From NCBI GenBank assembly GCA_963711775.1, contig CAVQFH010000003.1, forward strand, positions 87,110-151,109: a stretch of 64,000 nt of DNA, written 5' to 3'. The position numbers were made by a program, and so were the translations under genes. The stretch comes from an uncultured Actinomycetota bacterium. Its GTDB lineage: Bacteria; Actinomycetota; Actinomycetes; Mycobacteriales; Jatrophihabitantaceae. The notes under the pieces are model-generated. The model saw only the letters and a list, made by a program, of their open reading frames with translations, had not been told where the DNA came from and did not search any database. Below, in pieces: positions 46,941-64,000 of this stretch. Positions within the stretch are counted from its first letter, which is position 1. Every line of letters begins with the position of its first letter.

Positions 46941-48864
46941 CGCGGCGTTGAACACCACGAACGGATGCCGTCATGCCGGTGGTGTCGACCTGCTCGGCGA
47001 GCGGTCGCGCTGCGGCCGTGATCATATCCGCCGGCGGCCGCCGCGATGCGCTCGTGGTCGCGCAGGCAGTCCTCGTTGGCCCAGTGAATGCTCGAGCCGG
47101 GGATGATGTCGTGGAACTGGTTGAGCAACAACAGCTTCCACGCCTCGTCGAGCGCAGCCGCCGGATACGACGCTCCAGTCGGGCAGCAACGCGACGCCGC
47201 GACCGACCACAGCTCGGCCGCGCGCAACGCCTGCTCGTTCTTCCGGTTGGCGCGCTTGATCGGGCCGTTCGTGGTGTACGTGCCCCGGTGGTATTCGAGG
47301 TACAGCTCACCGACCCACACCGGGAGGTCGGCGCGATTCGGCGCGCACCTTCTCCCAGAACGACGCGACCGTGTCGAACTCGACGCGCGGCAGCGCCGTC
47401 GAGATCGGCCATCCGCTGCGCCGACTCGAGCATCGCCCGCGTCGGTCCGCCGCCACCGTCGCCGTAGCCGAACGGGTAGAGCGAACGATTCGACTGCGCC
47501 GACTGCTGATGCTGGCGCGTCGCCCTTCGCGACCTCGCCCAGGCTCATGTTGCCGTTGTAGGTGTCGGCGGGCGGGAAATGCGTCAGCACGCGGGTGCCG
47601 TCGATGCCTTCCCACCAGAACGTGCTGTGCGGGAAGCGGTTGACGTCGTTCCACGAGATCTTCTGCGTCAAGAAGTTCGTGACGCCCGCTTCCTTCAGGA
47701 TCTGCGGCAGCGCGGCCGAGTAGCCGAACACGTCGGGCAGCCAGAGGTCGGTCGTCTCGCGGCCGAACTCGTCGAGGAAGAAGCGCTTGCCGTGCACGAT
47801 CTGGCGCACGAGCGACTCACCCGACGGGAGGTTGCAATCGGCCTCGACCCACATGCTGCCGATCGGCTCGAACCGGCCCGCGTCGACCTGCTGCGCGATG
47901 CGGTCGTAGAGCGAGCGGGTAGCCCTCCTTGATCCACTGGTACTGCTGCGCCTGCGACGCCGAGAACTTGTATTCGGGATAGTCCTCCATGAGCCGCAGC
48001 GCGTTCGAGAACGTCCGCGCGCACTTGCGCTTGGTCTCCCGGATCGGCCACAGCCACGCGGTGTCGATGTGCGCGTGCCCGACCGCGCTCACGCGATGCG
48101 TCGTCGGGACCGGCGCGAGTCGCGAGCACCGGCGCCGAGCGCCGCCCGCGCGTCGGCGACCGTCGCGGAGCTGCGCGACGCCGTCGCGCTCGATCAGGTC
48201 GCACGCGTCTTCGAGCGCGCCGAGCGCACGTCGACCGCCTGCACCTCGCCGTCGGCGATCGAGCTCACCGTCACGAGCTGCAGGAGCACGAGCAGGTCGA
48301 AGTACAACGCCTCCACGTCACGACGCACGATCGCGAGCTCGGCTTGGCCCATCCGGTAGATCGGCGGACCGTCGACGTCGGGCATGAGCAACGGCCAGGG
48401 CGTCGTCTCCCACGGCGGGATCGGGTTGGCCGCGGCTTCGATCAAGCAGGTCGACCGCTTCGCCGCCGGCCGCCGGCTTCGCGACCACGTATTCGCGGTG
48501 CTTGAGGTGGATGCCCTGCCGGGGCTGATCGCCGTCCCAGACCAGTCCTTCGGCGGTGAAGCCCACCATGGCGCCCGCCGCCGCCGAGATCGAGCAGCGC
48601 GACGACCTCCTCGCCGTGCCACGCCGGCGGGATCGACGCGTGCATCCGGAACCACGTGGTGTCCCACGCGCCGCCCCACGACTCGCCCACCGCGAACGGC
48701 ACGTAGTCGCCGCGGCACGCCGTCGGCAACGCTGATCGGCTCGCCGTGCACGTGGAATGCCGACGACGTCGAGCGGCACCCGATCGCCGTAGATGGCGGG
48801 CCGCACCAGCCGCTTCAGCACATGGTCGATCCGAGTTATCGCCGGTTTTGCCGCCGGAGATCAC
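46940..48864 (-). CDS. Alpha-mannosidase (GH38), N-terminal ~60%, frameshifted and 3' truncated
   Basis: [58 protein letters not shown]. Confidence 0.88.
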
Positions 48865-48910: not shown

Positions 48911-49706
48911 ATGAGCCCCGAAGCCAAACCCAAACCCAAAGCGAAAGCCGCAGCCAAGCCCAAAGCGAAAGCCGAGGCCAAGCCCAAGGCGAAAGCCGCA
49001 GCGCGACGCGCCAAGGCGAAAGCCGAGCCAAGGCGAAAGCCGAAGCCGAAGCCCAAGGCGAAAGCCGAAGCCAAGCCCAAGGCGAAGGCCAAGGCCCAGT
49101 GCGAGGAGCCCGGAGGACCGAGGAAACCGTCGCACCGCCGAGCCGATCGACCGAGTCGACGGCGAGTCCGGCGACGACGAGCTCTCGGAGCAGGACGAGA
49201 TCGACCTGAAGCGACTCGACGCCGCGCTCGTCACGCTCGACGACGAATCGCTCCGGCGCGGCCTGAGCGGGGTCACCGAGAAGCAGCGCCAAGACCTCGC
49301 GCTCAACCTGAATCTCCCCCGCGCCACGATGCATCTCGGCGAGGCGCTCACCCCGCTCGTGCGGCGCAAGCTGCGCGGCCTCACGGTGGACCGCCAGCTG
49401 ATGGTGGCGAGCGCGCTCACGAATCGGACCAACGACTCCACGGTCCGCGCGCTCGGCGATCGCAGCGACGACCCGAGCCGCGCCGATCTCGAAGAGGTGT
49501 TGCCCGCGGTGGTCGAGGAGCACGGCATCGAGCTCGCCCGCCTGATGGTCGCGAGCTACGCGGTATCGGATGCACCGTGCCGCGATGCGATGCGCGAGAT
49601 CCTCGACACCGACGAGCGCTTCGCGATTCCCGAGGTCGACGACGCCGGCGCGGAGCCGGACGAGACCGCGCTGCCGAGCTTCGGCCTGGTCGCGCGGACG
49701 CCGTGA
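48911..49706 (+). CDS. Hypothetical protein with N-terminal Lys/Ala/Pro (histone H1-like) repeats
   Basis: AKPKAK repeats at 48923-49097, then a helical domain; frameshifted. Confidence 0.55.
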
Positions 49707-50272
49707 CCAAGGTCACCTCCCGGCTCTGCGACGCAGGTTTTCTAAAGCGATTCGATCTCTACGAGTCGCGGGACTATTTCGTGCTCGGGCCCGAGGCCGC
49801 ACGCATGCTCGGCGTGCCCCACAAGCGGACCGAGGAGCTTGGAGTCCAGGCCCTGCCCATCGAGTACGCCACGCTACTCTTCTGCACCGGGGCAGGGGAC
49901 CGCGAGCGACTGACTCGCGAGGAACTGAAGATCCACCATCCAAGCATTCTGGTGCCGGGCGTCGACGCGTTGCACTACTACCTCGACCGCGACGGCGGGA
50001 AGACGCGGCTGACGGCCCTCCGGGTCGATTGCGGCGGACCGCCCGACCACGTCGCCCGGAAGTGCCGCGAGGACCTCGACCGCAGGCTCGAGCACGACGC
50101 CTTTGGAACCCTCGTCGCCCACGATCAATTCATGATTGCAATCTTGACCGGCCGGGAGGAGAAGGCGAGTGCCATCCACGAGGCGCTCAAGCGGCATGAG
50201 TGGCCGATCCGTTTCCGGCTGAGTGCCATCCCCGAGCTGGTCCACCTGATGACCAGATTGGAGCACCGCTAA
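49694..50272 (+). CDS. Winged-helix/replication-relaxation-like protein, 5' truncated; paralog of 55280-56001
   Basis: AVTKVTSRL...YFVLG...ATLLFC...RERLT...HYYLD...LRVDCGG. Confidence 0.55.
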   Translation, partial: ADAVTKVTSRLCDAGFLKRFDLYESRDYFVLGPEAARMLGVPHKRTEELGVQALPIEYATLLFCTGAGDRERLTREELKIHHPSILVPGVDALHYYLDRDGGKTRLTALRVDCGGPPDHVARKCREDLDRRLEHDAFGTLVAHDQFMIAILTGREEKASAIHEALKRHEWPIRFRLSAIPELVHLMTRLEHR

Positions 50273-50273
50273 C

Positions 50274-53200
50274 GTGCCGTGGAACCCGCTCGCGAAACTC
50301 CCGAGGTGGCCGAGCACGGTCCGCCAGCCCATCGGCAATCCGCTCCAGACGGACCGGCTCCCCGACGCCTCGAAGGTCGAGCTGGAATACCCCGCCCGGG
50401 GCGAGGGCCCGGCGGAGGTGCGCGGCCACGCCCGGGCCATGCTCTTCCAGTACGCCCTCGTGGGCCTCGCCATCGGGGCCGTCCGGGCTGATGCTCCAAG
50501 GGTACGTCATCGGCGGCATGCTCTGTCCCCTCGTGGCGACCGGGGCGTTTCTCCTCATCGTCCGCAACGATCCCGCCTTCCGCGTCGGCTATTGGGCGTG
50601 GCAGCTCATCGGCGGGACCGTCCTCTTCGTCGCCCTCGTCACGTTCCGCGAGCCCGTCCCGTACCTGATCGTCTGCCTGCTGGCCGCCGTCCGCGTGCCG
50701 GACCTGTTCGCCAGCCACTACTTCCATCTGAAGACCACGGCCCCGCTGCCGAAGTCGCGGGCCAAGACGCTCCGCTCGCTCTGGGCCAGGCGCATGCGGA
50801 GCCTGACGACCGCCGCCAAGGGCCTGGAGCTTTATGCCCTGGCCGCGCTGAGCGTCGTCGCCATCCTGGTGTTCGTCTACGCCCTGGAGGCGGGCAACCG
50901 GGAGCGGCTGATGGCCACCGAGGCCCGTCACCTCGACTCGGTCATGTGGCTCTACATCGAGCTGCACGGTGCCCCGCTCCTCCTGGGCTTGCTGCTCTTG
51001 CTGGTCACCCCCTGGCTCGCCGAGCACGTCATCGCCTTCCTCTTCGCGCGAAGCCGGTCGGCATCCGCACGATGGTCCGCGCCTTCCGCGAGGCCGTCGT
51101 CGATTGGCTGACCTATAACCGCCACGGGGCGGTCTCCGTCGGCGTCTTCCAATCGCCGAGCGGCAGTTACCGCCAGAGGGGCCAATTGACGCTCGCGGCC
51201 GTCGCCGCCTTCGCCTGCCTGATGGTCGAGTTCTCCAACCGCGGGCGGCTCGTCCGGGAACGGCTCGAGCCCTTCCTCCCGTTCCCGCCCGACTTCGGAT
51301 GTCGGGCCGCCGCGCCGCCGCCCGTCACGGTCATCGACTCGTCTCGTACCAGCCCGACGACCCGCCGCTCGAACCCTGGCAGGCAGCCGCGCTCAGGCGG
51401 ATGGGCCCCGCAGAGCGTGCCGAGGCCTTGAAGCGTCTCCAGGCCCAGCAATCCCGGGCCGAGGAACCCAAGGCCGAGCCGAGCGTGCCGCAAGCGGAGG
51501 CCCCGCCGTCCGACTGGCAGCGATTCCGGAGGGGGCTCTCCACCGACGTCCCGGCCACCTTGCAGTTCGCGGCGGAGCCGCTGTTCTTCGCCGTCATCCC
51601 GCCGCTCTACTTCCTCGCCTGCTGCTTCGCCACCTCCGCCCGCGTGGCCGGGCTCTGGAGCCAGGAGTTCAAGACCGAGTCGGGGACGAGGCTGCTCAAC
51701 ACCGAGACCTGGGACGACCTCGTCGACCGCATCCGGGCGAGCGGGGACCGCATCGAGCGCGAGAGCCTGCTGCTCGGCGTGAACGCCCACGACGATTCGC
51801 CGGTCATCGTCCCGCGCTCCGTCTTCCAGGAGCACGCCCACCTGCTCGGCGACTCGGGCTCCGGCAAGACTTCGCTCGGCATCGCCTCGCTGCTCACGCA
51901 GTTCATCCGCTTCGGCGACTGCTCCGTGGTCGTCATCGACCTCAAGGGCGACGACATCGCGCTCATGGAAGGGGCCCGCATCGAGGCCGAGCGGGCGGGA
52001 ATCCGCTTCCGCTGGTTCAGCAACGAACTCGAACGCCCGACCTACCTCTTCAACCCCATGCAGCAGTCGCACCTGCCGCGGCTGTCGCTCTACCAGCGGA
52101 CCGACGTCCTCACCGCGTCGCTCGGGCTCCAGTACGGCACCGACTACGGCCGCGGCTTCTTCTCGGACGCAAACTCCGAGATGCTCTTCCACGCCCTGAA
52201 GGCGAGGCCCGAGGGCATCGCCTCGTTCTCCGAACTCGCCGCCGTCCTCCGCGAGAAGGCCCCGTTCCGGAACGTCCCCGAGGATTTGCGGTCCGCGGGC
52301 TCGCACCTGGGCGCCATCATCAACCGGCTGGCCGACACCAAGGCCCTGAACGCGACGGCCAAGGACGGATACCCGGAATCGGCGATGGCCGCCGCCATCG
52401 ACATGCCCGACATCTTCCGCACGCCGCAGGTGCTCTACTTCCACCTCGCCTCGGCCATCGGCATGGCCTCGACCGCGGAAATCGCCCGGCTCGCCCTCTA
52501 TTCGATCCTGACCGCCGCGAAGACGGCCCAGGGCGAGCGGACCCAGGTCTATCTCGTGATCGACGAGTTCCAACGCATCGTCTCGAACAACCTCGAGCTG
52601 TTCCTGCAGCAGGCCCGGAGCATGAACATCGGGATCATCCTGGCGAACCAGACGCTCGGGGATTTGAAGAGCCCCGACGCGGACCTGATCCCGACCGTCC
52701 GGGCGAACACGCGCTTCCGCCAGATCTTCGCCGCCTCCGACCTGGCCGAGCAGGACGAGATCATCAAGACCTCGGGCGAGACCACCGTCTTCAGCCGGGC
52801 CTGGAGCCAGTACCTCGGAACCGTGCTCGGGAGCTCGGGCACGTTCTCGCTCACGGAAACGCTCTCGCCCAGGCTCCGCGTCAACGACGTGTTGCTCGCG
52901 ACCGACCATCCGCAGCAGAGCATCGTCCAGGTCCGCCGCGGACAGGGCTACGCCCAGTTCGGCGGGTTTCCGTTCGTGATGACCTCCGCCTTCCACATCA
53001 CGCAAACGGAGTACGAGCGAAGGAAGCGGGCCCCGTGGCCCGACCGGGACGGGGAGACCGTCCGCCCGTCGCTCGCCGCCCCGGCGACGGTGCAGACGGA
53101 GGCCGCCGAAAGCCCGCCAGCAGGAACTCCTCCTAGGCCCGCCCGAGGTGATTCAGGCTGAGGCCCCGGGCCCAGTCGTGCCGGAGACCGAGGCGACCCA

Positions 53201-53327
53201 GGCGGCGGCACCGCCGGGCGAGGCGCAGGTGGCGACCGCGGAGGATGATCCCTTCGCCGCCCTCACGCGCTACCAGGAGGAACGGAAGAAGGCCCGCACT
53301 CGCAAGAAGAAAGGGGAGTCCCCGTGA
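50274..53327 (+). CDS. VirD4/TraD/TrwB-like type IV coupling ATPase with multi-TM N-terminus, frameshifted
   Basis: Walker A LLGDSGSGKTS, VIDLKGD, Walker B YLVIDEFQ, QARSMNIGIILANQTLGDL. Confidence 0.8.
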
Positions 53328-54628
53328 GCGAACCGCCGCAGAATCCCGGTGACCAGGCGAGCGACACCTCCCGGCTCAGCCTCACACGCGTCCTCACGGC
53401 CGCGGGGTTCGTCGGCCTCGTCGCCGTCGTCCTGGGGCTCCTCTGGAAGCTGAACAACGCCGCGCCCGCCGTCCAGCACGAGAACATTGCACTCAAGGAG
53501 CAACTCGGCAACATGCGAGGAGAAGTTCGCCGACCTGCAGGAGGGCCAACCAGCTCCGCGTCGAAGAGCAGCAGGTCCGACAGAGCGACTTCCAAGCCAC
53601 GGCCGCTTCCGCCGAGGAGGCGGCCAAGGCCGTCGACGACCTTCGAGAAGGCCGCCATCCGTTGGGACCGGACCACGCGAGAACTCCTCACGGCCGAGAA
53701 GGGCAAGGCCGTCGCCGCAAACGCCGAGGCGCTCGGGCAGTTCCGCGAACTCTGGAAACAGCCGAGGCCGGGGTCGGACGAGCCCGAGACGCTTCGCAGG
53801 CGGCTCGAACCGCTCAAGGCCGTCATCGACAAGGCGCGGTGCCGCGAACGACCCGAATTATGCCCCCAGCGAGGAGATCGTCACGAGGCTCAAGGCCGTC
53901 CGGGACGAGGCGACCCGAGGGGCCGGTGCCTACGACGAGCTAAACCGCAGGCTCGACGCCATCGTCTCGGCGGCCCCGCCGGTGCAGGCCGGGGCGGAAA
54001 AGCCGACCTTGGAGGCGGCGCTGGAGGGGCTCGAGCGGCGGCTCATCGCCGAAGAGAACGCCGCCATCAACGCTGCGGCCGACCAGGCCCGCAAGGAAAG
54101 GGCCGAGCGGCTCGCCCGGGAGAAGGCCGAGAGCGAGCGGCAAATTACCGACGCCCAGGTCGAAGCGGAGCGGGCCCGCAAAGATGCCGAGGTGAAGCGT
54201 CTCGCCGACGAGAAGAAGGCGGCGATGGCGCAGGCCGCCGAGGACGAGAAGGCGAGGGCTCTCGCCCTCCAGGAAGCCGAAGTGGAGCGGAAGTTCCAGG
54301 CCGCGTTGCCGGAGATCCAGCGGCTGCTCAAGCCATTCATCACGGACGGCTAACACCCAGCTCGTCGGGGGCAGCTACACGGAAGGCGCTGACCAAGGGG
54401 AAAGTCTCCTATACCGCCCTCCAGGGCAGCGGCCACCTCGAGAAGACCATCGAGGGCATCACCCTGCTCCGCGAAGCGATGTTCGTCGACGGGGAGAACG
54501 ATCGCGAGCTGGGGTCCTTCCCCCGCTTACAACATCAAGGGGATGGGAGCCAGCGGCCGCCCGCGGCCCAGGAGCTGCTCATCGAATTCGGTCCCCTCCT
54601 GGTCAAGAAGAAGATGCTCGAGCCGTAG
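53324..54628 (+). CDS. Membrane-anchored coiled-coil protein, frameshifted
   Basis: N-terminal TM, long E/A/K/R heptad region; GTGA overlap with upstream stop. Confidence 0.65.
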   Translation: MSEPPQNPGDQASDTSRLSLTRVLTAAGFVGLVAVVLGLLWKLNNAAPAVQHENIALKEQLGNMRGEVRRPAGGPTSSASKSSRSDRATSKPRPLPPRRRPRPSTTFEKAAIRWDRTTRELLTAEKGKAVAANAEALGQFRELWKQPRPGSDEPETLRRRLEPLKAVIDKARCRERPELCPQRGDRHEAQGRPGRGDPRGRCLRRAKPQARRHRLGGPAGAGRGGKADLGGGAGGARAAAHRRRERRHQRCGRPGPQGKGRAARPGEGRERAANYRRPGRSGAGPQRCRGEASRRREEGGDGAGRRGREGEGSRPPGSRSGAEVPGRVAGDPAAAQAIHHGRLTPSSSGAATRKALTKGKVSYTALQGSGHLEKTIEGITLLREAMFVDGENDRELGSFPRLQHQGDGSQRPPAAQELLIEFGPLLVKKKMLEP

Positions 54629-54636
54629 GAGGGGCG

Positions 54637-55277
54637 ATGGGCGGCGCAACCTGGACTCCCCGTGACCTGGACATCGTCGAGACCTTGGCGGCCAAGGTCC
54701 GTCTGCTCACGACCGGCCAGATCGCCAGCGGCTGGTGGGGGCCCAGCCAACACCGGGAGGAGCACGCGCGGACCAGGCTTCGACTCCTCACCCGGGCCGG
54801 GCTGCTGTGCTCCTACCGCGTAAACGCCCACCCGACGTGGGAACTCCGCGGGCCCGTCGTCCGCTGGAAACCGGGCGAGCCCGACCCGGACGCGGGGGCG
54901 GCTTCGGGCACCCTCCAGGCCCGCTGGACCGAGCCCGCGCGGCCGACGACCGTCTACATCGCAAGCCCGGCCGCGGCGGGCCTCTTCGGCTGCACGGGCG
55001 GGGAACTCCCCGACCTGACCCACCGCGACCACGACCTCTTGCTCGGCGAGGTCTTCGTCACCTACCTGCGGGCGAGCCCGAGGCGGCCCGCGGCTGGGTC
55101 GGGGAGGCGGCCCGGCCGAAGGCGGGCTACCGCGTGAAGGACCCCGACGCCTTCCTCCTGGACCGGGAAGGGAACACCCTCCGCGTCATCGAGTCGGGCG
55201 GGAAATACGACGCCGAGCGGGTCGAAGCGTTCCACGAGCACTGTGCGGGACATCGCATGCCCTACGAGTTGTGGTGA
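54637..55277 (+). CDS. Replication-relaxation-like (wHTH + PD-(D/E)xK) protein, one frameshift
   Basis: TPRDLDIVETL..VRLLTTGQI, ARTRLRLL, HRDHDL, WVGE, KDPDAF, RVIESGG. Confidence 0.65.
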
Positions 55278-55279
55278 CC

Positions 55280-56001
55280 ATGCCGGGCGAACTCGACCCC
55301 CTGACCTACGACGTGCTCGATCACATCGCCCGCTACCGCATCGGCGTGCCGGAGGCGCTCGTCCGCACACCGCCCTTCGCCGCCCTCTCGCTCAAGCGGG
55401 TCAAGCGCACCTTGCACGCCCTGACCGAGGGCGAAGGCGAGGTGCTCCTCGCGTCGGCCCCGCTCTACGGCGATCACCGCTACTTCTACCTGACCCGGGC
55501 CGGGGAGGCCGTCATCGGCGAGCCCGACGCGGGGCAGGGGAAGCACCGCAAGGCGGGGCGCTCTCGGAGGTGGCGAAAGTCCGGGCCTACGGCGTGCTCG
55601 CGTTCTGCTGCCTCTCCGAACACCCGAGGCAGCGGCTCACGCCGGACGAGTTCCGGCGGAGCTTCCCCAATCACAACCGCCCGGGACTCCCGATGAGCTA
55701 CTACGCCGATCACGAGACGAGGCGTCTGGGGTTCGTCCGCGTCGACACCGGGAGTGGGGGTCGCTGGGACCGGGTCGCCGTTCGCATCCGAGAGGACGTC
55801 GAGCGGCACGCGGAGATCCCCGCCTTCCGCGAATCGATCGCCGCGGGGGCCTTCGAGCTGGCCCTCGTCACCGCAACCGACCGGAAGGCCGAGCGGCTCC
55901 GCCCCTTTTTCGAGGAGGAGACGCGGATGAACGGAGTTCCCGTCCGCGTGCACGCCGTACCACGGCTCATCGATCTCATCGCGCCGATGCCGAGGGGCTA
56001 G
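55280..56001 (+). CDS. Winged-helix/replication-relaxation-like protein, one frameshift
   Basis: DVLDHIARYRIG...YFYLT...GVLAFC...RQRLT...SYYAD...VRVDTG. Confidence 0.55.
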
Positions 56002-56289
56002 CGGCAGGGCGCTCGCAAGGCCGGTCCCACCCGCTACAATCGAAGGCTCAAGGTCCTAACGCCTTGATCGTTCTCCGCCCGTCCCTCGTCGCCCGGAGAC
56101 CCAAAACATCGGCGAAGGCGGCCCACGCCGCCGGGACGCGCCCGAGGTTCCATCACCGTCCATCCGCCCCGAATCGCTCACTCGCTTTCATGGGTTTCAC
56201 GACCGCGTTCACGGCCCTTCCGGGGCCGTGAGCGGGATTGTAAACCCGCCCGGGGGACACCACCCCGGGTCTCATGAAGGAAGAAAGTG

Positions 56290-56631
56290 ATGAAAGGAGA
56301 AGACAAACAGCTAAGGGCAGTCATCAAGCGGGAAATCGCCCGGACCGAGTTCGGCCGGGAGGGGGAGAACGGCCTGATTCGCATGCGATTCAGGGCGGTC
56401 CGTGACGAGGGGACCGGGGAAACCCGGGTCCACGTCACAATCCCCAACGCGGAGAAGATCGCCTTCGCTTGCGACATGGGCGTGCTGCTCCAAAGCTTCG
56501 GCTGGGGGATGGCCACGCTCGGCCGGGACCTGGAGGCGATCTACGGCAAGGACCCGGCGATGGCCTGGCATCAGTGCTGTCGGACCATCTCGCTCGTTGA
56601 ATACTGCCTGCTGCTGGAACCGCTGGATTAA
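56290..56631 (+). CDS. Hypothetical protein (113 aa)
   Basis: Purine-rich RBS GAAGGAAGAAAG, followed by a terminator. Confidence 0.55.
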   Translation: MKGEDKQLRAVIKREIARTEFGREGENGLIRMRFRAVRDEGTGETRVHVTIPNAEKIAFACDMGVLLQSFGWGMATLGRDLEAIYGKDPAMAWHQCCRTISLVEYCLLLEPLD

Positions 56632-56675: not shown

Positions 56676-56717
56676 GCGCGGGGGCCGCCCGGTTCCGTCT
56701 CCGGCATCGAGGCCGAG

Positions 56718-56754
56718 AAAAAAGGCCCAAGAGGCTCTCGTCTCTTGGGCCCAG
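56718..56754 (-). terminator. Terminator-like hairpin, copy 1 of a ~36-bp repeat
   Basis: AAAAAA-GGCCCAAGAG-N8-CTCTTGGGCC. Confidence 0.65.
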
Positions 56755-57007
56755 TGTGGAACCGGGGATTGCACCACCCGGAGTCGTCGAGGACTCAGAG
56801 GATGAGGAAGAACGGTTCCCTTATCTGTTCTTGCCATGACCGGACCGCGTTGTCACTTACTCGCCGTCCCGAAACCGGTGAGGAGCAGCGATCCCCGAAA
56901 TGCCATCCGCCCGACATGCAATTGTCGATAACTAGATACATGTTGGCTAACCAATCTCGCCCGCCTTGCAGCATCGCCCGGCCGCATCGTCGCCATCTTG
57001 AGAAAGG

Positions 57008-57043
57008 AAAAAGGCCCAGGAGACTCTCGTCTCAAGGGCCCAG
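57008..57043 (-). terminator. Terminator-like hairpin, copy 2
   Basis: AAAAAGGCCCAGGAGACTCTCGTCTCAAGGGCCCAG just after the stop of 57053-57232. Confidence 0.6.
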
Positions 57044-57232: not shown

Positions 57233-57699
57233 GGAATCCCTCCACTGACATGCGTTGTTAAAAGCCAGCACCCACCGGCGTGCCCAGGGGCACGCCGACA
57301 CGCGTCGGCTCACGCACACAGCGGCTGGGAAGATGAGGACTTGCCTTTCGCCCGTTGATTTGGCGTGCTCCCGGGCCAGGAGCGAAGAACAACCCTTGGA
57401 GGGTCCGGAATCGGGCACGCCCGCCGTGCCCCGCGCCATTGTAACGGCCGGGCGGGGGCGATGAATCGAGAGGGCCGCGGGCGGCCGGGAATACGGGCCT
57501 GCCCGCGCTGCCTCAAAATGGCCACCCGAGGGCCACGACTTTTCAATTCAACCGCGTGCGGGCAAGTGCTACGCTGGCCGTTTCGCAAGACGGAACGGGT
57601 AGACGAAACACCACGGCCTCCCTGCGACCCAGGGAGGCTTTCGACGCATCCGATAAGGTTCGGTGCCCCAGCCTCCCGCACGGAGTGGAGCGCCCCCCA

Positions 57700-58435
57700 A
57701 TGGCGAATTCCAACCTGGTCCTGCATCGCGGCGCGAAGGCGGTCAACCTGGACGAGCTTCAGAGATTCCAGGCCCCGCCGCCCGAAGGCAGGTGGTTCCC
57801 GCTGTCCCACGGCCGCGTGCTGAGCGTCGTGACCGACACGCTCGGCGAGGCGGGCTACCTCATCGAGAAGCAGCAGCTCGGCGTCATGCGCGACGGCTCG
57901 CGGTTCTTCGGGACCCTCGACCTCAAGAGCCCCGTCGCCGACGGCGTGAGCCTCGCGGTCGGCATCCGCAACAGCGTGGACAAGTCGTTCCCGCTCGGCT
58001 TCTGCGCCGGGAGCCGCGTGTTCGTGTGCGACAACCTCGCGTTCCGCTCGGAACTCCTGGTCCGCCGCAAGCACACCGTCTTCGGCGAGCGCGATTTCGT
58101 CCGGCGGATCGCCGAGGCGGTCGGCTCGCTCCCGTCGTTCCAGGAGCAGGAGGCACTCCGCATCGAGCGGATGAAAGGGGCGGAGCTGGACGGCGACCAG
58201 GCCGACGCGCTGATCCTCCGCGGATTCGAGCGGGGCATCGTCGGGAGCGAGGGAGCTTCCCCGGGTGCTCCAGCAATGGCGTAACCCGCCCTTCGAGGAG
58301 TTCCGGCCGCGGACCGCGTGGGCCCTGCTCAACGCCTTCACCTCGGCCATGAAGGAGCGGGGAGGGAGCCAGCCGCAGAGCTACGCCACGCAGACCATGC
58401 GGCTCCACGCCCTGCTCGACCCGGAGAGGAACTGA
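57700..58435 (+). CDS. DUF932/DUF945 family protein (mobile-element associated), one frameshift
   Basis: GIRNSVDKSF, RVFVCDNLAF, RRKHT, TAWALLNAFT. Confidence 0.8.
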
Positions 58436-58533: not shown

Positions 58534-58884
58534 TCAGCCCTTCCGGACCCGCGCGAGCAGCTCTCCGCGATCCTTGAGCTCACGCTCGAAGTCCTCGAGG
58601 ATCGTCTCGCAGACCAGCTTGCAGAGGCGTTCCACCAGCGGGTCGGTGATCCGGTAGAACACCTGCATGCCGTCGCGGCGGCGGCTGACGAGTCCGGCCT
58701 CGGCGAGCAGCTTGAGGTGCTTGGAGACGTTGGCCTGGCCGCGTCCGCTCTCCTCCACCACCTGGCCCACGCTCTTCTCGCCCGCCATCAGGGCGCGGAG
58801 GATCGCCAGGCGGCTCGGGTCGGCGAGCATGCGGAACTTCTCGGCCATGAGGTCGAGGAACTCGTCGGGGATCGGGCCGGTCAT
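58534..58884 (-). CDS. ArsR/SmtB family repressor with C-terminal CxxxC
   Basis: FRMLADPSRLAIL, QANVSKHLKLL, VFYRI, LCKLVC. Confidence 0.9.
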   Translation of the reverse strand: MTGPIPDEFLDLMAEKFRMLADPSRLAILRALMAGEKSVGQVVEESGRGQANVSKHLKLLAEAGLVSRRRDGMQVFYRITDPLVERLCKLVCETILEDFERELKDRGELLARVRKG

Positions 58885-58888
58885 CGGG

Positions 58889-58937
58889 TTGACTTTATTA
58901 CTGTTGGGTTATAAGGTAGAACGAGCGAACAGTAATA
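58889..58937 (+). promoter_or_regulatory. Sigma70-type promoter with 10-bp inverted repeat (probable ArsR operator)
   Basis: TTGACT-N17-TAAGGT; TATTACTGTT (58896-58905) / AACAGTAATA (58928-58937). Confidence 0.7.
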
Positions 58938-58960
58938 TCCTACCACAAGGAGGCTCGACC

Positions 58961-59410
58961 ATGAAGAGGATTCGCTACACCTGGCTGCTCCCCGCCCTGC
59001 TGGCCCTGGCCTGGGGCTCGACGAAACTGGCCCCGGCCCTGGCTGCCGAGACGCCCGCCGCATCAGGGCCCATCCGGGCGGTGGTCCACGTGAACTTCGG
59101 CGACGCCGAGCGGCAGGGCAAGGGCCTGAAGAACATCGCCAACATCCTGAAAGAGGTCGGCGACAAGGCCCAGCTCGAGGTGGTCGCCCACGGGGCGGGC
59201 ATCGACCTGCTGGTGGCCTCCAAGACCAAGCACGCCGGGCAGATCGCCGAGCTTCGCGGCCGCGGGGTGCGTTTCGTGGCCTGCGAGAACACGCTCGCCG
59301 AGAAGTCGATCCCCAAGGGCGACCTGCTCGAGGGCGTGGGCACGGTCCCTTCGGGCGCGGTCGAGGTGATCCGCAAGCAGCACGAGGGCTACGCCTACTT
59401 CCGCCCGTAA
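58961..59410 (+). CDS. Exported DsrE/DsrF-like protein
   Basis: Signal peptide; EVVAHGAG, FVACENT, VPSGAVE, GYAYFRP. Confidence 0.85.
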   Translation: MKRIRYTWLLPALLALAWGSTKLAPALAAETPAASGPIRAVVHVNFGDAERQGKGLKNIANILKEVGDKAQLEVVAHGAGIDLLVASKTKHAGQIAELRGRGVRFVACENTLAEKSIPKGDLLEGVGTVPSGAVEVIRKQHEGYAYFRP

Positions 59411-59474
59411 AGCCTGAGGGACACGGTGTCATTCCTGACGTTGGCGACGGCTTCGGGGTTACGGGGAAATTCGC

Positions 59475-61065
59475 ATGCGACACGGTTGGAAAATGACCGC
59501 ACTGGCACTCTCGGCCCTGATCGCGACCGAGGCCCAGGCCCGGCCGCCCGAAGGCGGCGGGGCGGGGCGAAAGACGATCACGCTCGCCTACTTCGCCGAC
59601 CTGCACGCCCAGCTCGAGCCGCACCCGGAGCTGTTCTGGTCGGAGGGGCAGGACGAGACGACGACTGCGGGCGGGGTCTCGCGGCTGGCCACGGCAATCG
59701 CTGCCCTCCGGCGCGAGCAGCCGGGGGGGACGCTGGTTTTCGACGGCGGGGACACGATCCAGGGATCGGCCGCCGCCGCCTGGACCGAGGGCCGCGCGGT
59801 GGTCCCGCCCGTCAACGCCCTGGGCCTCGACTTCGGCATCCCGGGAAACTGGGAGGTGGTCTACGGCAAGGCGGCCCTGCTGGAGCGGGCCAAGGAATTC
59901 CGCCACCCGCTCATCGCCGCGAACATCCGCGACGCCGAGACGAAAGAACTGATTTTCAAGCCATACATCGTCAAAGAATTGGATGGTGTGCGAGTCGCCG
60001 TCATCGGCCTCACCGACCCGGACGTCCCCGAGCGTCAGCCGCCCTCCTACAGCCGCGGGCTCATCTTCGACGGCCCTGAGGTCCTCCCGCCGCTGATCAA
60101 GCGCGTGCGCGAGGAGGAACACGCCGACGTGGTGGCCGTCGCCGCGCACATCGGCCTGCCCAAGGCGATCGATCTCGCCGGTCGGCTTGAAGGCGTCGAC
60201 CTCTTCCTTTCGAGCGACACGCACGAGCGGACCTACAAGCCGATCATCAAGGGGCAGACCTGGGTCGTCGAGCCGGGCGCATTCGGTTCCTTCCTCGGCC
60301 GCCTCGATCTCACGATCGAGGGCGGCAAGGTGGTGGACCGCCGCTGGGAGCTGACCGAGCTCCGGGCCGACCGCGTGGCCGAGGACCCTGCGGTCAAGGC
60401 CCTCGTCGAGAAGACCCTGGCGCCCTCCGCGAGAAGCTCGACCGCGTCATCGGCGAGACGAGCGTGCCGCTGGTGCGTTACGCCGTGGTCGAGACCAACC
60501 TCGACGCGGTCCTGGCCGATGCGCTCCGCGAGGCGGCCGGGACGGACATCGGTCTTTCCAACGGCTTTCGCTTCGCCGGGCCCACGCCCCCGGGCCGATC
60601 CGCGAGCGTGACCTGTGGAACTGGTACCCGATCACGGCCCCGCTCAAGACCGGCACGGTGACGGGCAAGCAGCTCCGGGAGTTCTGGGAGCGCGAGCTCG
60701 AGAACGTCTTCGCCTCCGACCCGGCGAAGCTCTTCGGCGGCTGGGTGCCGCGCCCGTCGGGGATGACACTCACGTTCGAGGCCAAGGCGCCCAAGGGCAA
60801 ACGCCTCAGGGAGCTGAACGTCGGCGGGAAGCCCGTCTCCGACGAGGCCCGTTACTCGATCGTCTCCTGCGAGCGTGAAGGCGATGCGCCCGACAAGGTC
60901 TGCCGCATCCCCGGCGTCGACGACGTGAAGAAGCTCGCATTCGACGCCCACGAGGCGGTCCGCCGGTACTTAGCCAAGCACCGGCCGCTGGGGCAGCCCG
61001 AGCTGGGGCGGGTCGTGGCGACCGATCTGCCGCCGGTCATACGCTCCCAGGTCTCGGGACGGTAA
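59475..61065 (+). CDS. SoxB-like metallophosphoesterase/5'-nucleotidase, exported, frameshifted
   Basis: DLHAQLEP, DGGDTIQGS, GNWEVVYG, AHIG, DTHER, SNGFRF. Confidence 0.78.
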
Positions 61066-61142
61066 GAGTATTGCTTGCGAGTCGAGGACGCGTGTCCCCG
61101 AACGCACCGCTCGGATGAACAGCACGGAACGAGGAACAGACC

Positions 61143-61604
61143 ATGGAAGACAGGATGAAGCTCAACGATCACATCTCCGTCGGCGCCCAGCCGTCGGAAG
61201 AACAGCTCCGGCAGATGGCCGAGGAAGGCATCAAGGCGGTGGTCAACCTCCGGACCGAAGGCGAGGAGGATCAGCCGTTATCGCCCGCGGCAGAAGGTGA
61301 GAAGGTGCGGGCCCTGGGCATGGAGTACCTGCACATCCCGGTCTCCTCGAAGGAGCCCCGGGCCGAGCAGGTCGACCAGTTCCGCGCCGAAGTCCCCCAG
61401 CTCCCGGGCCCGGTGTTCGTCCACTGCGCCTCGGGCAAGCGGGCCGGGGCCTTCGCGATGATGCACCAGGCGGTCGAAGCCGGTTGGTCGGGAGACGAAA
61501 CCCTGGAGAAGGCCGAGCAGATGGGCTTCGAGTGCGACGTCCCGGCCTTGAAAGACTTCGTCCGGGGCTACATCGACGAGAACCAGCCGAAGACGCTTTC
61601 TTGA
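61143..61604 (+). CDS. Blh/DUF442-like sulfurtransferase (PTP-like fold)
   Basis: GAQPS, VVNLRTEGE, YLHIPV, FVHCASGKRAG. Confidence 0.82.
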   Translation: MEDRMKLNDHISVGAQPSEEQLRQMAEEGIKAVVNLRTEGEEDQPLSPAAEGEKVRALGMEYLHIPVSSKEPRAEQVDQFRAEVPQLPGPVFVHCASGKRAGAFAMMHQAVEAGWSGDETLEKAEQMGFECDVPALKDFVRGYIDENQPKTLS

Positions 61605-61615
61605 GGGGCGGGGCC

Positions 61616-62175
61616 ATGGGAATCCGGACGATCACGCCGAGAGAACTCCACGAGCTACGACGGGGCGGAAAAGACATCAACCTCATCGACGTGCGCACCC
61701 CGGCCGAGCACGGCGAGGTGCACGCCGAGGGGGCGAGGAACGTCCCGCTCGACAGGCTCGATGCCCCGGCCCTCATCGGTTCCAGGAATGGTCCCGGCGA
61801 TGAGCCCCTCTACTTCATCTGCCGCTCGGGGGGCCGCGCCAACCAGGCGTGCGAGCGGGTCGCGGCCGCCGGGTTCCCGAACGTCGTGAACGTCGAGGGC
61901 GGGACCCTGGCCTGGGAGCAGGCGGGGCTGCCCGTGGTCCGGGGCGGAGGAAGGCCGTCTCGCTCGAACGCCAGGTGCGGATCGCGGCCGGGTCGCTCGT
62001 GCTCATCGGCACGGCCCTGGGGGCGTTCGTGCATCCGTACTTCCTGGGCCTCTCGGCCTTCGTAGGCGCGGGGCTGGTGTTCGCGGGCATCACCGACACC
62101 TGCGGCATGGCCATGATGCTCGGCCGCCTGCCGTGGAACCGGGCGGGCGGAGAGGGGGCCGCATGCTCGCCCTGA
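61616..62175 (+). CDS. Rhodanese + DUF2892 protein (YgaP-like), one frameshift
   Basis: [23 protein letters not shown]; [22 protein letters not shown]. Confidence 0.88.
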
Positions 62176-62992
62176 ATCCGATCTTCGGGGCGGTGGTCGG
62201 GCTCTCGCTCGGCCTGACCGGAGGCGGCGGGTCGATCTTCGCCGTGCCGCTCCTGATTTACGGCCTGGGCGTGAGACCGCGAGAGGCCATCGGCGTCTCG
62301 CTCGCCGCCGTAGGCGTCACCGCGCTCGTCGGCGCCGTCCAGCGGCTCCGCTCGGGCCAGGTGGAGGTCAAGACGGGACTGCTCTTCGCCGCGGCCGGGA
62401 TGCTCGCCACTCCCGCGGGGGCCTGGCTGGGCGGCCGACTTCCCGAGGCGGTGCTGCTGGTACTCTTCGCGGGCCTGATGATCGCCGTGGCCGTGCGGAT
62501 GTGGCTGAAGGCCGCCCGCGACCCCGACGAGGCCCGAGCGGTACGCGCGGCCGGGCGCCGCACGCCGCGGATATTCAGGGCCCGGCCTGCCGTCGCGACC
62601 CGGGCGGGCGGCTGGCGATGACTTCGCGTTGCGCCGTCGTGCTCATGGTCGCGGGGCTCGTGGCAGGTCTGCTCTCCGGACTCTTCGGCGTGGGCGGCGG
62701 GTTCGTGATCGTCCCCGCGCTGGTGCTCACCAGCGGCATGGACATCCACCGGGCCGTGGCCACATCGCTGCTGGTGATCGCCCTCGTGAGCGCCGCAGGG
62801 GTGGCGTCTTACTTGGCGGCCGGTCGTCCGCTCCCGTTGGAGTCGACCGCGCTGTTCGTCGCGGGGGGCGTCGCCGGGATGGGACTCGGGACGCTGCTCG
62901 CGCGGCGAATCTCCGGGCCCGGCCTGCAGAAAATCTTCGCCGCGGCGATGCTCCTCGTCGCGGTGTTTATCGTAACCAAGAGCGTCACCTGA
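62163..62992 (+). CDS. Sulfite exporter TauE/SafE family, one frameshift
   Basis: [34 protein letters not shown]. Confidence 0.88.
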
Positions 62993-63008
62993 AGGAGGAG
63001 GTACACCC

Positions 63009-64000
63009 ATGTTTTTCCGGCAACGAAGCGTCCCCGGCCTGGCCATCTACAGCTACATGGTCGGCGACGAGAAGACCAAGGAATGCGCCGTCATCGACCC
63101 GACGCGGGACGTCGAGGAGTACGTCGAGACGGCCAAGGCCGAGGGGCTGCACATCAAGCACATCCTCGAGACCCACGTCCACGCCGACTTCGTGAGCGGG
63201 GCGAAGGAACTCAAGGAGCGGCTCGGCGGCAAGCCCGAGATCCACTGCTCGGGCATGGGCGGCAAGGAATGGACGCCCCCGTACGCCGACGTCGTGGTGA
63301 AAGACGGCGACGAGATCGCCATGGGCCGGATCCGACTCAAGGCCATGCACACCCCGGGCCACACCCCCGAGCACGTCTCCTGGGCGTCTACGACGACGCG
63401 CGGAGCGAGGACACGCCCTGGCTCATCTTCACGGGCGACTTCCTGTTCGTCGGCGACGTCGGCCGCCCCGACCTCCTCGGCGACGAGCAGCGGGCGGCCC
63501 TGGCCCACCAGCTCTACAAGAGCGTCTTCGAGGTGCTGCCGGGCCTGCCCGACTTCACCGAGATCTTCCCCGCCCACGGCGCGGGCTCGCTCTGCGGCAA
63601 GGCCATCGGCTCTCGCGGCGACTCGACCGTCGGCTACGAGCGGCGATTCAACGGGGCGCTCCAGCCGAAGCCGGAGAAGGAATGGGCCGAGGGCCTGCTC
63701 AAGGACATGCCCGTCGCCCCGCCGTACTTCCGGCGGATGAAGAAGGTCAACGCCGAGGGGCCGACGGTGCTGGGCCCGGTCCTGCCGGGCCAGAAGCGGT
63801 TCACGCCGAAGGAGGTCCACGAGCGGGTCTGCGAGCAGTGCCTCATCGTCGACGTACGGCCGAAGGAGGCCTTCGCCGCGGCGCACATCCCGGGCTCGAT
63901 CAACATCCCGCTGGGCCAGAACCTCCCGGCCTGGGCCGGGTGGGTGCTGCCCTACGATCGGCCGACGCTCATCGTCCCCGACGACCCGAAGGACGTCCCG
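63009..64000 (+). CDS. MBL-fold persulfide dioxygenase-rhodanese fusion (CstB-like), 3' truncated
   Basis: ETHVHADFVSG, HTPGHTPEH, TGDFLFVGDVGRPDL, PAHGAGSLCG, DVRP..FAAAHIPGS. Confidence 0.88.

Follow-up and report, generated by a model that had tools for sequence, protein, structure and literature searches.

The window analysed here, a 64,000 nt stretch of contig CAVQFH010000003.1 from an assembly assigned to an uncultured actinobacterium (GCA_963711775.1), contains at 49694-56001 an operon encoding a coupling ATPase (T4CP), a coiled-coil membrane protein (CC) and small winged-helix proteins of two kinds, here termed R and W, which occur in pairs. The module formed by R, W and the ATPase is probably, if with considerable doubt, a mobilisation unit of the MOBC type, in which R would nick DNA as a heterodimer with W, itself predicted to be catalytically dead, and the mating pore would be borrowed.

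Structure and conservation of the operon

The five genes lie on the plus strand and follow one another at distances of 1, -4 (a GTGA overlap), 8 and 2 nt, the close co-oriented packing described in the original prediction, which was made from the sequence of the window. They are W1 (49694..50272), consisting of a winged helix and a degenerate Replic_Relax domain and 87% identical to its counterpart in Tautonia sociabilis; the VirD4/TraG-like coupling ATPase (50274..53327); the single-pass CC (53324..54628); R2 (54637..55277), a winged helix followed by a PD-(D/E)XK-type domain and the predicted nicking subunit; and W2 (55280..56001), its predicted non-catalytic partner, built like W1. All the motifs listed in that prediction are present, namely the Walker A sequence GDSGSGKT (51848-51871), the Walker B sequence LVIDEFQ (52553-52573), ARS..I..ANQ, RD..I, H-D, PD..E and RVD.G. 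Its statement that the operon is cut at the 5' end also holds, with the cut now placed inside W1, at approximately codon 41 of 231, and a sixth gene, R1, found to be missing: the complete unit in T. sociabilis is arranged R1-W1-T4CP-CC-R2-W2. Upstream of these six genes T. sociabilis carries a Rep-like gene (our label, as it matches no family), ParA, a ribbon-helix-helix gene and a toxin-antitoxin gene, and downstream metal-resistance cargo and a DUF932 gene.

Four of the five window genes are frameshifted: the ATPase in several places, CC, R2 (near 55070) and W2 (near 55550). The T. sociabilis locus (L002) was used as the intact model for this broken and truncated copy. It was one of two loci found at 89% amino acid identity to the ATPase in a scan of one genome per species, the other (L001) lying on a contig of a metagenome-assembled genome (G002); both are intact and share ~82% nucleotide identity with the window across all five genes. 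At window positions 51050, 55069 and 55554 one additional base is present in short-read contigs from related strains; this, together with the intact T. sociabilis copy, makes long-read errors the most likely origin of the frame breaks. The ratio of non-synonymous to synonymous substitution rates was below one in 23 of 23 gene pairs tested, at 0.08-0.51 for R, W and T4CP and 0.44-0.85 for the C-terminus of CC. A metagenome scan by R2 motifs, biased to forms with two R-W pairs, returned 73 loci, and the five core genes are complete and in order in 24 loci, conservation of gene order being a test that the original prediction had set. The nucleotide identity, this conserved order and the substitution ratios argue against a chance arrangement; the operon is conserved and real.

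Relationship of R and W to MOBC relaxases

On the basis of sequence comparison, R and W are remote homologues of Replic_Relax (PF13814, the MOBC relaxase) with an N-terminal winged helix, in agreement with the kinship originally suggested for the small proteins. The AlphaFold2 (AF2) models of R2 and W2 have predicted local distance difference test (pLDDT) values of 94 and 90, and both begin with a MarR-type winged helix (Z 10.3, root mean square deviation 1.7 over 64 aligned residues for R2; Z 10.4, 3.4 and 76 for W2). PF13814 itself matches 58 of 120 R homologues at E<=0.01 and one of 51 W homologues at E<=0.05; in T. sociabilis W1 scores 15.9 bits (E=0.015), R1 and W2 have no match, and the genome contains no PF13814 match above the cut-off. 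When a canonical Replic_Relax profile of 69 above-cut-off members was compared by hhalign, R matched over residues 1-160 (probability 97%, E=9e-12) and W over its full length (96-97%, E=1e-9 to 1e-10; E=1.2e-10 for W2). Direct comparison of the R and W profiles is weak and covers the winged helix only (17%, E=0.0015), and their kinship follows from both matching canonical Replic_Relax. For the C-terminal domains, structural searches with the R2 and W2 models listed BstEII, YaeQ, FAN1, FokI and SdaI, all in non-significant Foldseek rows, the VIA lists being taken up by the winged helix, and the ESM Atlas clusters nearest to W2 are unnamed, one having 15% Replic_Relax members.

PF13814 belongs to the PD-(D/E)XK families (PMC3424549) and corresponds to the MOBC class of CONJscan (PMC5357655). 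The original prediction had treated Replic_Relax proteins as an alternative to MOB relaxases; since Replic_Relax is the Pfam family of MOBC, its statement that no MOB relaxase is visible does not hold.

The two kinds of protein differ in their presumed active sites. R2 contains H-D, W-x-G-E, PD, E-x-(G/A/S), Y, FH..C and PYELW motifs, and the H-D, G-E, PD, E, Y and H residues of R are kept in 29/29 R1 and in 39-47 of 47 R2. In W aligned to canonical Replic_Relax, PD falls on YY and E-x-D on R-V-D; Arg occupies the Glu position in 25/29 W1 and 35/36 W2, and the His, PD-Asp, first Glu and Tyr are missing, with only the third acid kept. R is accordingly likely to be a MOBC-like nicking protein, although it has neither a three-acid metal site nor, in T. 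sociabilis, a Pfam score above the cut-off, and W looks like a pseudonuclease, predicted to be catalytically dead. The degenerate paralogs foreseen at either end of the operon thus correspond to W1 and W2, with R-x-D in place of E-x-D; where one catalytic and two degenerate subunits had been envisaged, the actual set comprises two R-W pairs, each of one catalytic-type and one degenerate protein. With 1343 clusters at 50% identity, R is a large family. A lone, weak and divergent R-like gene was also observed in a low-GC context (L123, G130:C145:46551-47096), with no W or ATPase within 1.5 kb.

Pairing of R and W

Among scorable cases, 99 of 100 R genes have a W behind them and 95 of 96 W genes an R in front of them; these counts set aside 14 R and 10 W matches at contig ends or in fragments and include some near-duplicate loci. 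Where two pairs are present, the copies fall into separate clades, with 0/76 sequences misplaced in the R tree (support 0.72) and 1/65 in the W tree (support 0.67).

R2 and W2 are predicted to bind each other. Modelled from row-paired alignments, the complex scored 0.73 against 0.47 for the best control; the mark used was reached by 116 of 157 solved pairs and 2 of 215 mismatched ones, counts that are only rough for alignments of this kind. Across runs at least 98% of contacts agree and the pLDDT of the partner is at least 86. The predicted interface comprises R residues 108-118 and W residues 158-164, 199-207 and 229-238, among which are nearly invariant columns of both families, and would place the degenerate nuclease domain and C-terminus of W on the winged-helix end of R, away from the acids of R. 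A shared active site, with W supplying the third acid, is not favoured, because the predicted interface excludes the acidic residues of R.

The coupling ATPase and the coiled-coil protein

By its family matches the ATPase belongs to the type IV coupling proteins (VirD4/TraG/TrwB), as originally proposed: PF10412 (TrwB_AAD_bind), PF12696 (TraG-D_C) and PF02534 (T4SS-DNA_transf) all match above their cut-offs. The intact copy is 1042 amino acids long with ~7 predicted membrane helices, the GDSGSGKT and LVIDEFQ motifs are present in 3/3 coupling ATPases checked, and a Kyte-Doolittle scan gave 7, 9 and 7 hydrophobic segments in three proteins, consistent with a membrane anchor. Its best NCBIfam match, below the cut-off of that family, is to SXT TraD (E=2.5e-16), and HerA matches are far weaker (0.003). 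A tblastn search of PLSDB with the ATPase and R2 returned no match.

CC is a single-pass membrane coiled coil with a conserved C-terminal domain of ~100 amino acids, which received no assignment in Pfam or NCBIfam and had no usable ESM Atlas match. The coiled-coil membrane protein of the original prediction is indeed present in the window; it is not a universal part of the operon, lying after the ATPase in some elements and 4-6 kb upstream in others, and was undetected in several, including a 28.7-kb circle.

Distribution and element type

Searches of 401 sampled Planctomycetota genomes with T4CP, R and W found each in eight. T4CP and W share the same eight genomes; R occurs in seven of them, the eighth being a cut contig, and as one weak lone match elsewhere. 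The nine elements in these genomes comprise three with two pairs, four with one pair, one arranged R-W-T4CP-W and one that is cut. No relative of R was found in IMG/VR.

Clustering and Pfam searches identified tyrosine and serine integrases, ParA/ParB, ArdC, DUF932, MT-A70 and other methylases as neighbours, along with kinases, restriction genes, toxin-antitoxin genes and metal-efflux cargo. Of 46 loci scanned, 15 have an integrase directly beside a tRNA or tmRNA gene, three of the 15 being near-identical. Other members are plasmid-like: a 57,384 bp contig (G002:C151, L008-L010) has a 55-nt terminal repeat, and on a contig of 28,666 bp (G169:C4, L026+L027) W1 is rejoined in frame across the ends, from which both are taken to be closed circles. 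Each carries the module together with ParA, a Rep-like gene without a family and a tyrosine recombinase, and they are possibly a new planctomycete replicon type. These circles and the integrases beside tRNA or tmRNA genes agree with the mobilisable element first proposed. That no integrase is visible remains true of the window, which is cut, but not of its relatives. The absence of a visible VirB4 extends further: among selected open reading frames (ORFs) of the two closed circles, picked by a coding heuristic, there was no Pfam match to VirB4, mating pair formation (MPF) proteins or HUH relaxases, and no HUH relaxase match was found among the ORFs scanned on other loci.

Two hosts also contain Replic_Relax (MOBC-type) genes above the Pfam cut-off, at C3:695800, C5:501085, C5:540311, C6:272388 and C6:285278 of G287 and at C17:62038 and 84227 of G398, several of which adjoin soluble coupling ATPases and integrases. 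These single-relaxase islands plausibly represent the ancestral layout. In the integrated clade, the stretch between CC and R1 (L022:13062-16339; L051-L105 upstream of R1) holds, in up to 18 loci, two Ser/Thr kinase genes, one fused to a helix-turn-helix (HTH) domain, along with a small ORF and a further gene without a name; this set is possibly a regulatory circuit of the module. The commonest neighbour is a protein of 85-100 amino acids (e.g. L105:11657-11950), found in 29 locus groups, often in two or three copies, and without a Pfam or NCBIfam match, which may, from its appearance, bind single-stranded DNA.

Candidate cis elements

Of 48 metagenome loci, 43 have a ~60-nt motif within 160 nt after the last W gene. 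In the clade of the window it is further away and on the opposite strand (57340..57399, minus strand; nhmmer E=6e-10). It contains a small hairpin and a predicted H-type pseudoknot with an A-rich loop, in which 89% of cells are paired, there are 26 double-sided changes and both helices covary; none of 500 shuffles reached this covariation, a result inflated by related sequences. G-T pairs are tolerated in the helices, so the motif leans towards RNA, and it may be regarded as a candidate cis site or non-coding RNA. Rfam gave no match at E<=1 in L023 and four sub-threshold matches in the window, none on the motif. The exact pattern is found in two of the 401 genomes, once each, within two-pair elements, and not in IMG/VR. 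It was further seen at L023:12210-12288 and in many loci from L049 to L112, with two copies in L059, L096, L100 and L111. The architecture resembles that of luteoviral frameshift pseudoknots; a role in -1 frameshifting was rejected, as the aligned flanks share no start codon and the clade of the window lacks the slippery-looking heptamer.

Upstream of R1, four to five direct repeats of CTGRACG occur in 6/26 loci against ~0.2 expected, the motif having been chosen after these loci were seen. In T. sociabilis the repeats lie in ~1 kb of GC-rich non-coding DNA (L002:6300-7280), shared with L043, L044, L036 and L038; this region is cut off in the window. The relaxase TraX binds five direct repeats, and the CTGRACG region or the pseudoknot may, to judge from sequence, be part of an origin of transfer. 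The window also holds two 69-nt repeats, 74% alike (56686-56754 and 56975-57043), with terminator-like hairpins on the minus strand inside them.

The contig join and the probable host

The match to T. sociabilis begins at 49695, within W1, and from around 49-49.7 kb up to the end of the contig the composition is planctomycete-like, according to a classifier whose training set included related element DNA. Actinobacterial-type DNA on the left thus meets a planctomycete element at 49694..49695, in a probable chimera that cuts W1 and removes R1 and the repeat region upstream of it. The source assembly is 60% complete; its class also contains G434, a genome encoding a protein that shares 97% identity with one of Microbispora, which identifies the class as Actinomycetia. 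The end of the contig is most likely chimeric, and the true host an Isosphaeraceae-like planctomycete; a Planctomycete-like host had been suspected from the outset. An actinobacterial host, as the surrounding contig would imply, is improbable. No compared contig of related strains spans the join.

For the window copy, true insertion into an actinobacterial chromosome by cross-phylum transfer would account for the element's physical place on this contig, and the near-identical L001 was likewise binned in a genome labelled as an actinobacterium. We consider this highly improbable: W1 is cut mid-gene with no att site or insertion sequence seen at the join, R was found in 0/200 other genomes of the contig's class and a left-flank ORF in 0/30 relatives, and the contig of L001 is a closed circle, which composition binning could misplace. 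There is, moreover, a second apparent join near 47100, where an alpha-mannosidase gene breaks off and unrelated genes follow. Foreign tetranucleotide composition was also observed at further contig ends of the assembly (C1, C8, C17 and the start of C3), which likely holds several chimeric joins.

To the right of the operon, the window contains a small conserved ORF of ~113 amino acids typical of Isosphaeraceae-type elements (56287..56631, plus strand; 49% identical to the L002 copy and also present in L042, L043 and L046) and a frameshifted gene of the DUF932 family (57700..58435, plus strand), part of the element backbone and 83-98% identical to the L002 copy, which matches PF06067 above the cut-off. 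From 58534 to 64000, the remaining DNA has the composition class of the operon and encodes probable cargo with Pfam matches, comprising an ArsR regulator and DsrE, phosphatase-like, YgaP-like, TauE and rhodanese-containing proteins.

Proposed mechanism and alternatives

Working as a MOBC-type mobilisation unit, an R-W pair would bind the transfer origin through its two winged helices; R would cut with its H-D/E/PD/E site, with W providing a scaffold and acting as a specificity factor. The DNA would then go, by way of the ATPase, to the mating pore of another element, and CC would link the ATPase to the envelope or to that pore. Integrated members would excise through their own tyrosine or serine integrase, and plasmid-like members would be maintained by ParA and the Rep-like protein. 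In two-pair elements R1-W1 and R2-W2 may have separate jobs, because the two copies fall into distinct clades and the pseudoknot accompanies R2-W2; the simplest division would be between the start and end of transfer, or between two sites.

A number of observations weigh against this interpretation. The third acid of the MOBC triad is absent from all 29 R1 and all 46 listed R2 (of 47): G, A, S or C stands in its place, PD and E being kept, and the three-acid metal site (D...E-x-D/E) is incomplete. The extra invariant acids of R (H-D and G-E) might, from their conservation, substitute for it. The local profile match of R stops at residue 160 and does not cover PD..E, the T. sociabilis R2 scores 17.8 bits against a PF13814 cut-off of 25.3, and neither the R2 nor the W2 model has a Foldseek match in the PDB at E<=0.001. 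Conjugation among Planctomycetes is unreported (bioRxiv 2024.01.22.576637). As regards a helper pore, PF19044 and PF03135 were found in 0/5 host genomes, and PF12846 gave only matches of Walker A size there. No att repeat was found within 46 kb of the tRNA gene in G287 or within 12 short loci. An origin motif shared by all elements is lacking: the CTGRACG repeats are limited to the 6/26 loci, and the pseudoknot was not found in single-pair elements. Finally, decayed loci (L067, L077, L079 and L081-L083) retain R2-W2 with T4CP truncated or lost.

Transfer systems with a single ATPase exist, as in Streptomyces TraB and Thermus TdtA, and the module could conceivably be self-sufficient, the multi-pass ATPase and CC forming a VirB4-free export route for a substrate cut by R-W. 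Coupling proteins usually have two membrane helices, against ~7-9 predicted here; no VirB4 family match was found in five hosts or on the two closed circles, and elements occur in several host lineages (8/401 genomes). Such self-transfer is nonetheless unlikely, given that the ATPase is VirD4-like and not FtsK-like, that CC is absent or displaced in many elements and undetected on the 28.7-kb circle, that no outer-membrane component was seen, and that MOBC elements which borrow pores and lack MPF are already known. An elaboration in which two heterodimeric relaxases, each consisting of a nickase and its dead paralog, cut the start and end of the element, one of them at or with the pseudoknot, and ATPase and CC provide the export route is a long shot; if true, this VirB4-free system would explain the start and end of transfer by a relaxase class that makes no covalent link to DNA.

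The R-W pair could instead function in replication, excision, partition or transcriptional regulation, with the ATPase tethering or moving DNA inside the cell. Plasmid replication proteins likewise fall within PF13814, a family that has been called a predicted regulator; the missing third acid of R and the persistence of R2-W2 where T4CP is broken point the same way. Such a maintenance role appears improbable beside the separate integrases, ParA/ParB and Rep-like gene of the elements, the near-invariance of the acidic residues of R and the placing of the ATPase in conjugative coupling families. Least convincing is defence against phages or plasmids by a HerA-like ATPase, a PD-(D/E)XK nuclease and a dead paralog with a regulatory role: the weak HerA matches and the restriction-modification, toxin-antitoxin and kinase genes on the same elements suggest it, but the coupling-protein match is far stronger than that to HerA (2.5e-16 vs 0.003), and the module forms a constant backbone next to the integrase and maintenance genes, in contrast to the variable defence genes, making this a very unlikely explanation. 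A MOBC-type mobilisation unit with a borrowed pore is the interpretation we prefer.

Comparison with known systems

No description of the module was found in the open-licence literature, including the available parts of PMC12673574 and PMC11104534, and it is apparently undescribed. A MOBscan survey of 83 Planctomycetes genomes reported, in its main text, no relaxase classes beyond MOBF and MOBP and no chromosomal MPF that was complete (bioRxiv 2024.01.22.576637); its supplements may list some of these coupling proteins. As that survey lists only these two classes and conjugation in the phylum is unreported, these elements, which bear metal resistance, appear mostly to escape standard profiles. 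MOBC relaxases form no covalent intermediate, and how the DNA is delivered and reclosed is an open question (PMC6736028, PMC12857230). A natural split into catalytic-type and dead subunits, duplicated in two lasting clades, would offer separable parts with which to address it. Genetic tools for the phylum are scarce; one host is a cultured species, and the 28.7- and 57-kb circles are a source of candidate origins and vector components.

The closest counterparts are the MOBC relaxases of CloDF13 (MobC, with MobB) and pAD1 (TraX), which similarly have an N-terminal HTH and a PD-(D/E)XK-type domain in which a conserved His and W..E precede PD, adjoin a VirD4-like coupling protein and do not need MPF on the element. 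The module differs in having two or four paralogs in place of one, an R that lacks the third acid and ends early, a W without the His, PD-Asp, first Glu and Tyr, and a fixed R-W pairing with a predicted heterodimer, and in falling mostly below the Pfam cut-off. An integrative and mobilisable element (IME) with MOBC, VirD4 and an integrase but no MPF is a known layout (PMC5357655), exemplified by the streptococcal IME class 8 of the same study, in which the integrase is a serine integrase. This shares with the module a compact coupling protein-relaxase-integrase set, no MPF and, as in the module's relatives, integrases beside tRNA or tmRNA genes; the module, by contrast, is found in a diderm phylum, on elements of 28-57 kb with plasmid-like and integrated forms, and adds paired relaxases, CC and the pseudoknot motif.

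In NikA/NikB and PcfF/PcfG, a non-catalytic partner likewise probably helps the relaxase to reach the origin (PMC12857230), although the known helpers are mostly ribbon-helix-helix proteins, whereas the putative helper here is a full-length dead relaxase paralog. The single-relaxase islands of G287 and G398 resemble the module in combining a membrane partner, coupling ATPase, Replic_Relax, small genes and an integrase; they have one relaxase, with E-x-D intact and above the Pfam cut-off, an ATPase without predicted membrane helices, and no W. The DNA translocation operon of the Bacillus phage 0305phi8-36 (PMC3357382) also pairs a MobC-related relaxase with a VirD4-like ATPase and membrane anchors in the absence of a full type IV secretion system, but is phage-borne and has a single relaxase. 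Set against these systems, the MOBC and coupling-protein kind of module is itself known, and what is new is the fixed pair of active and dead paralogs, its duplication, the altered site and the pseudoknot.

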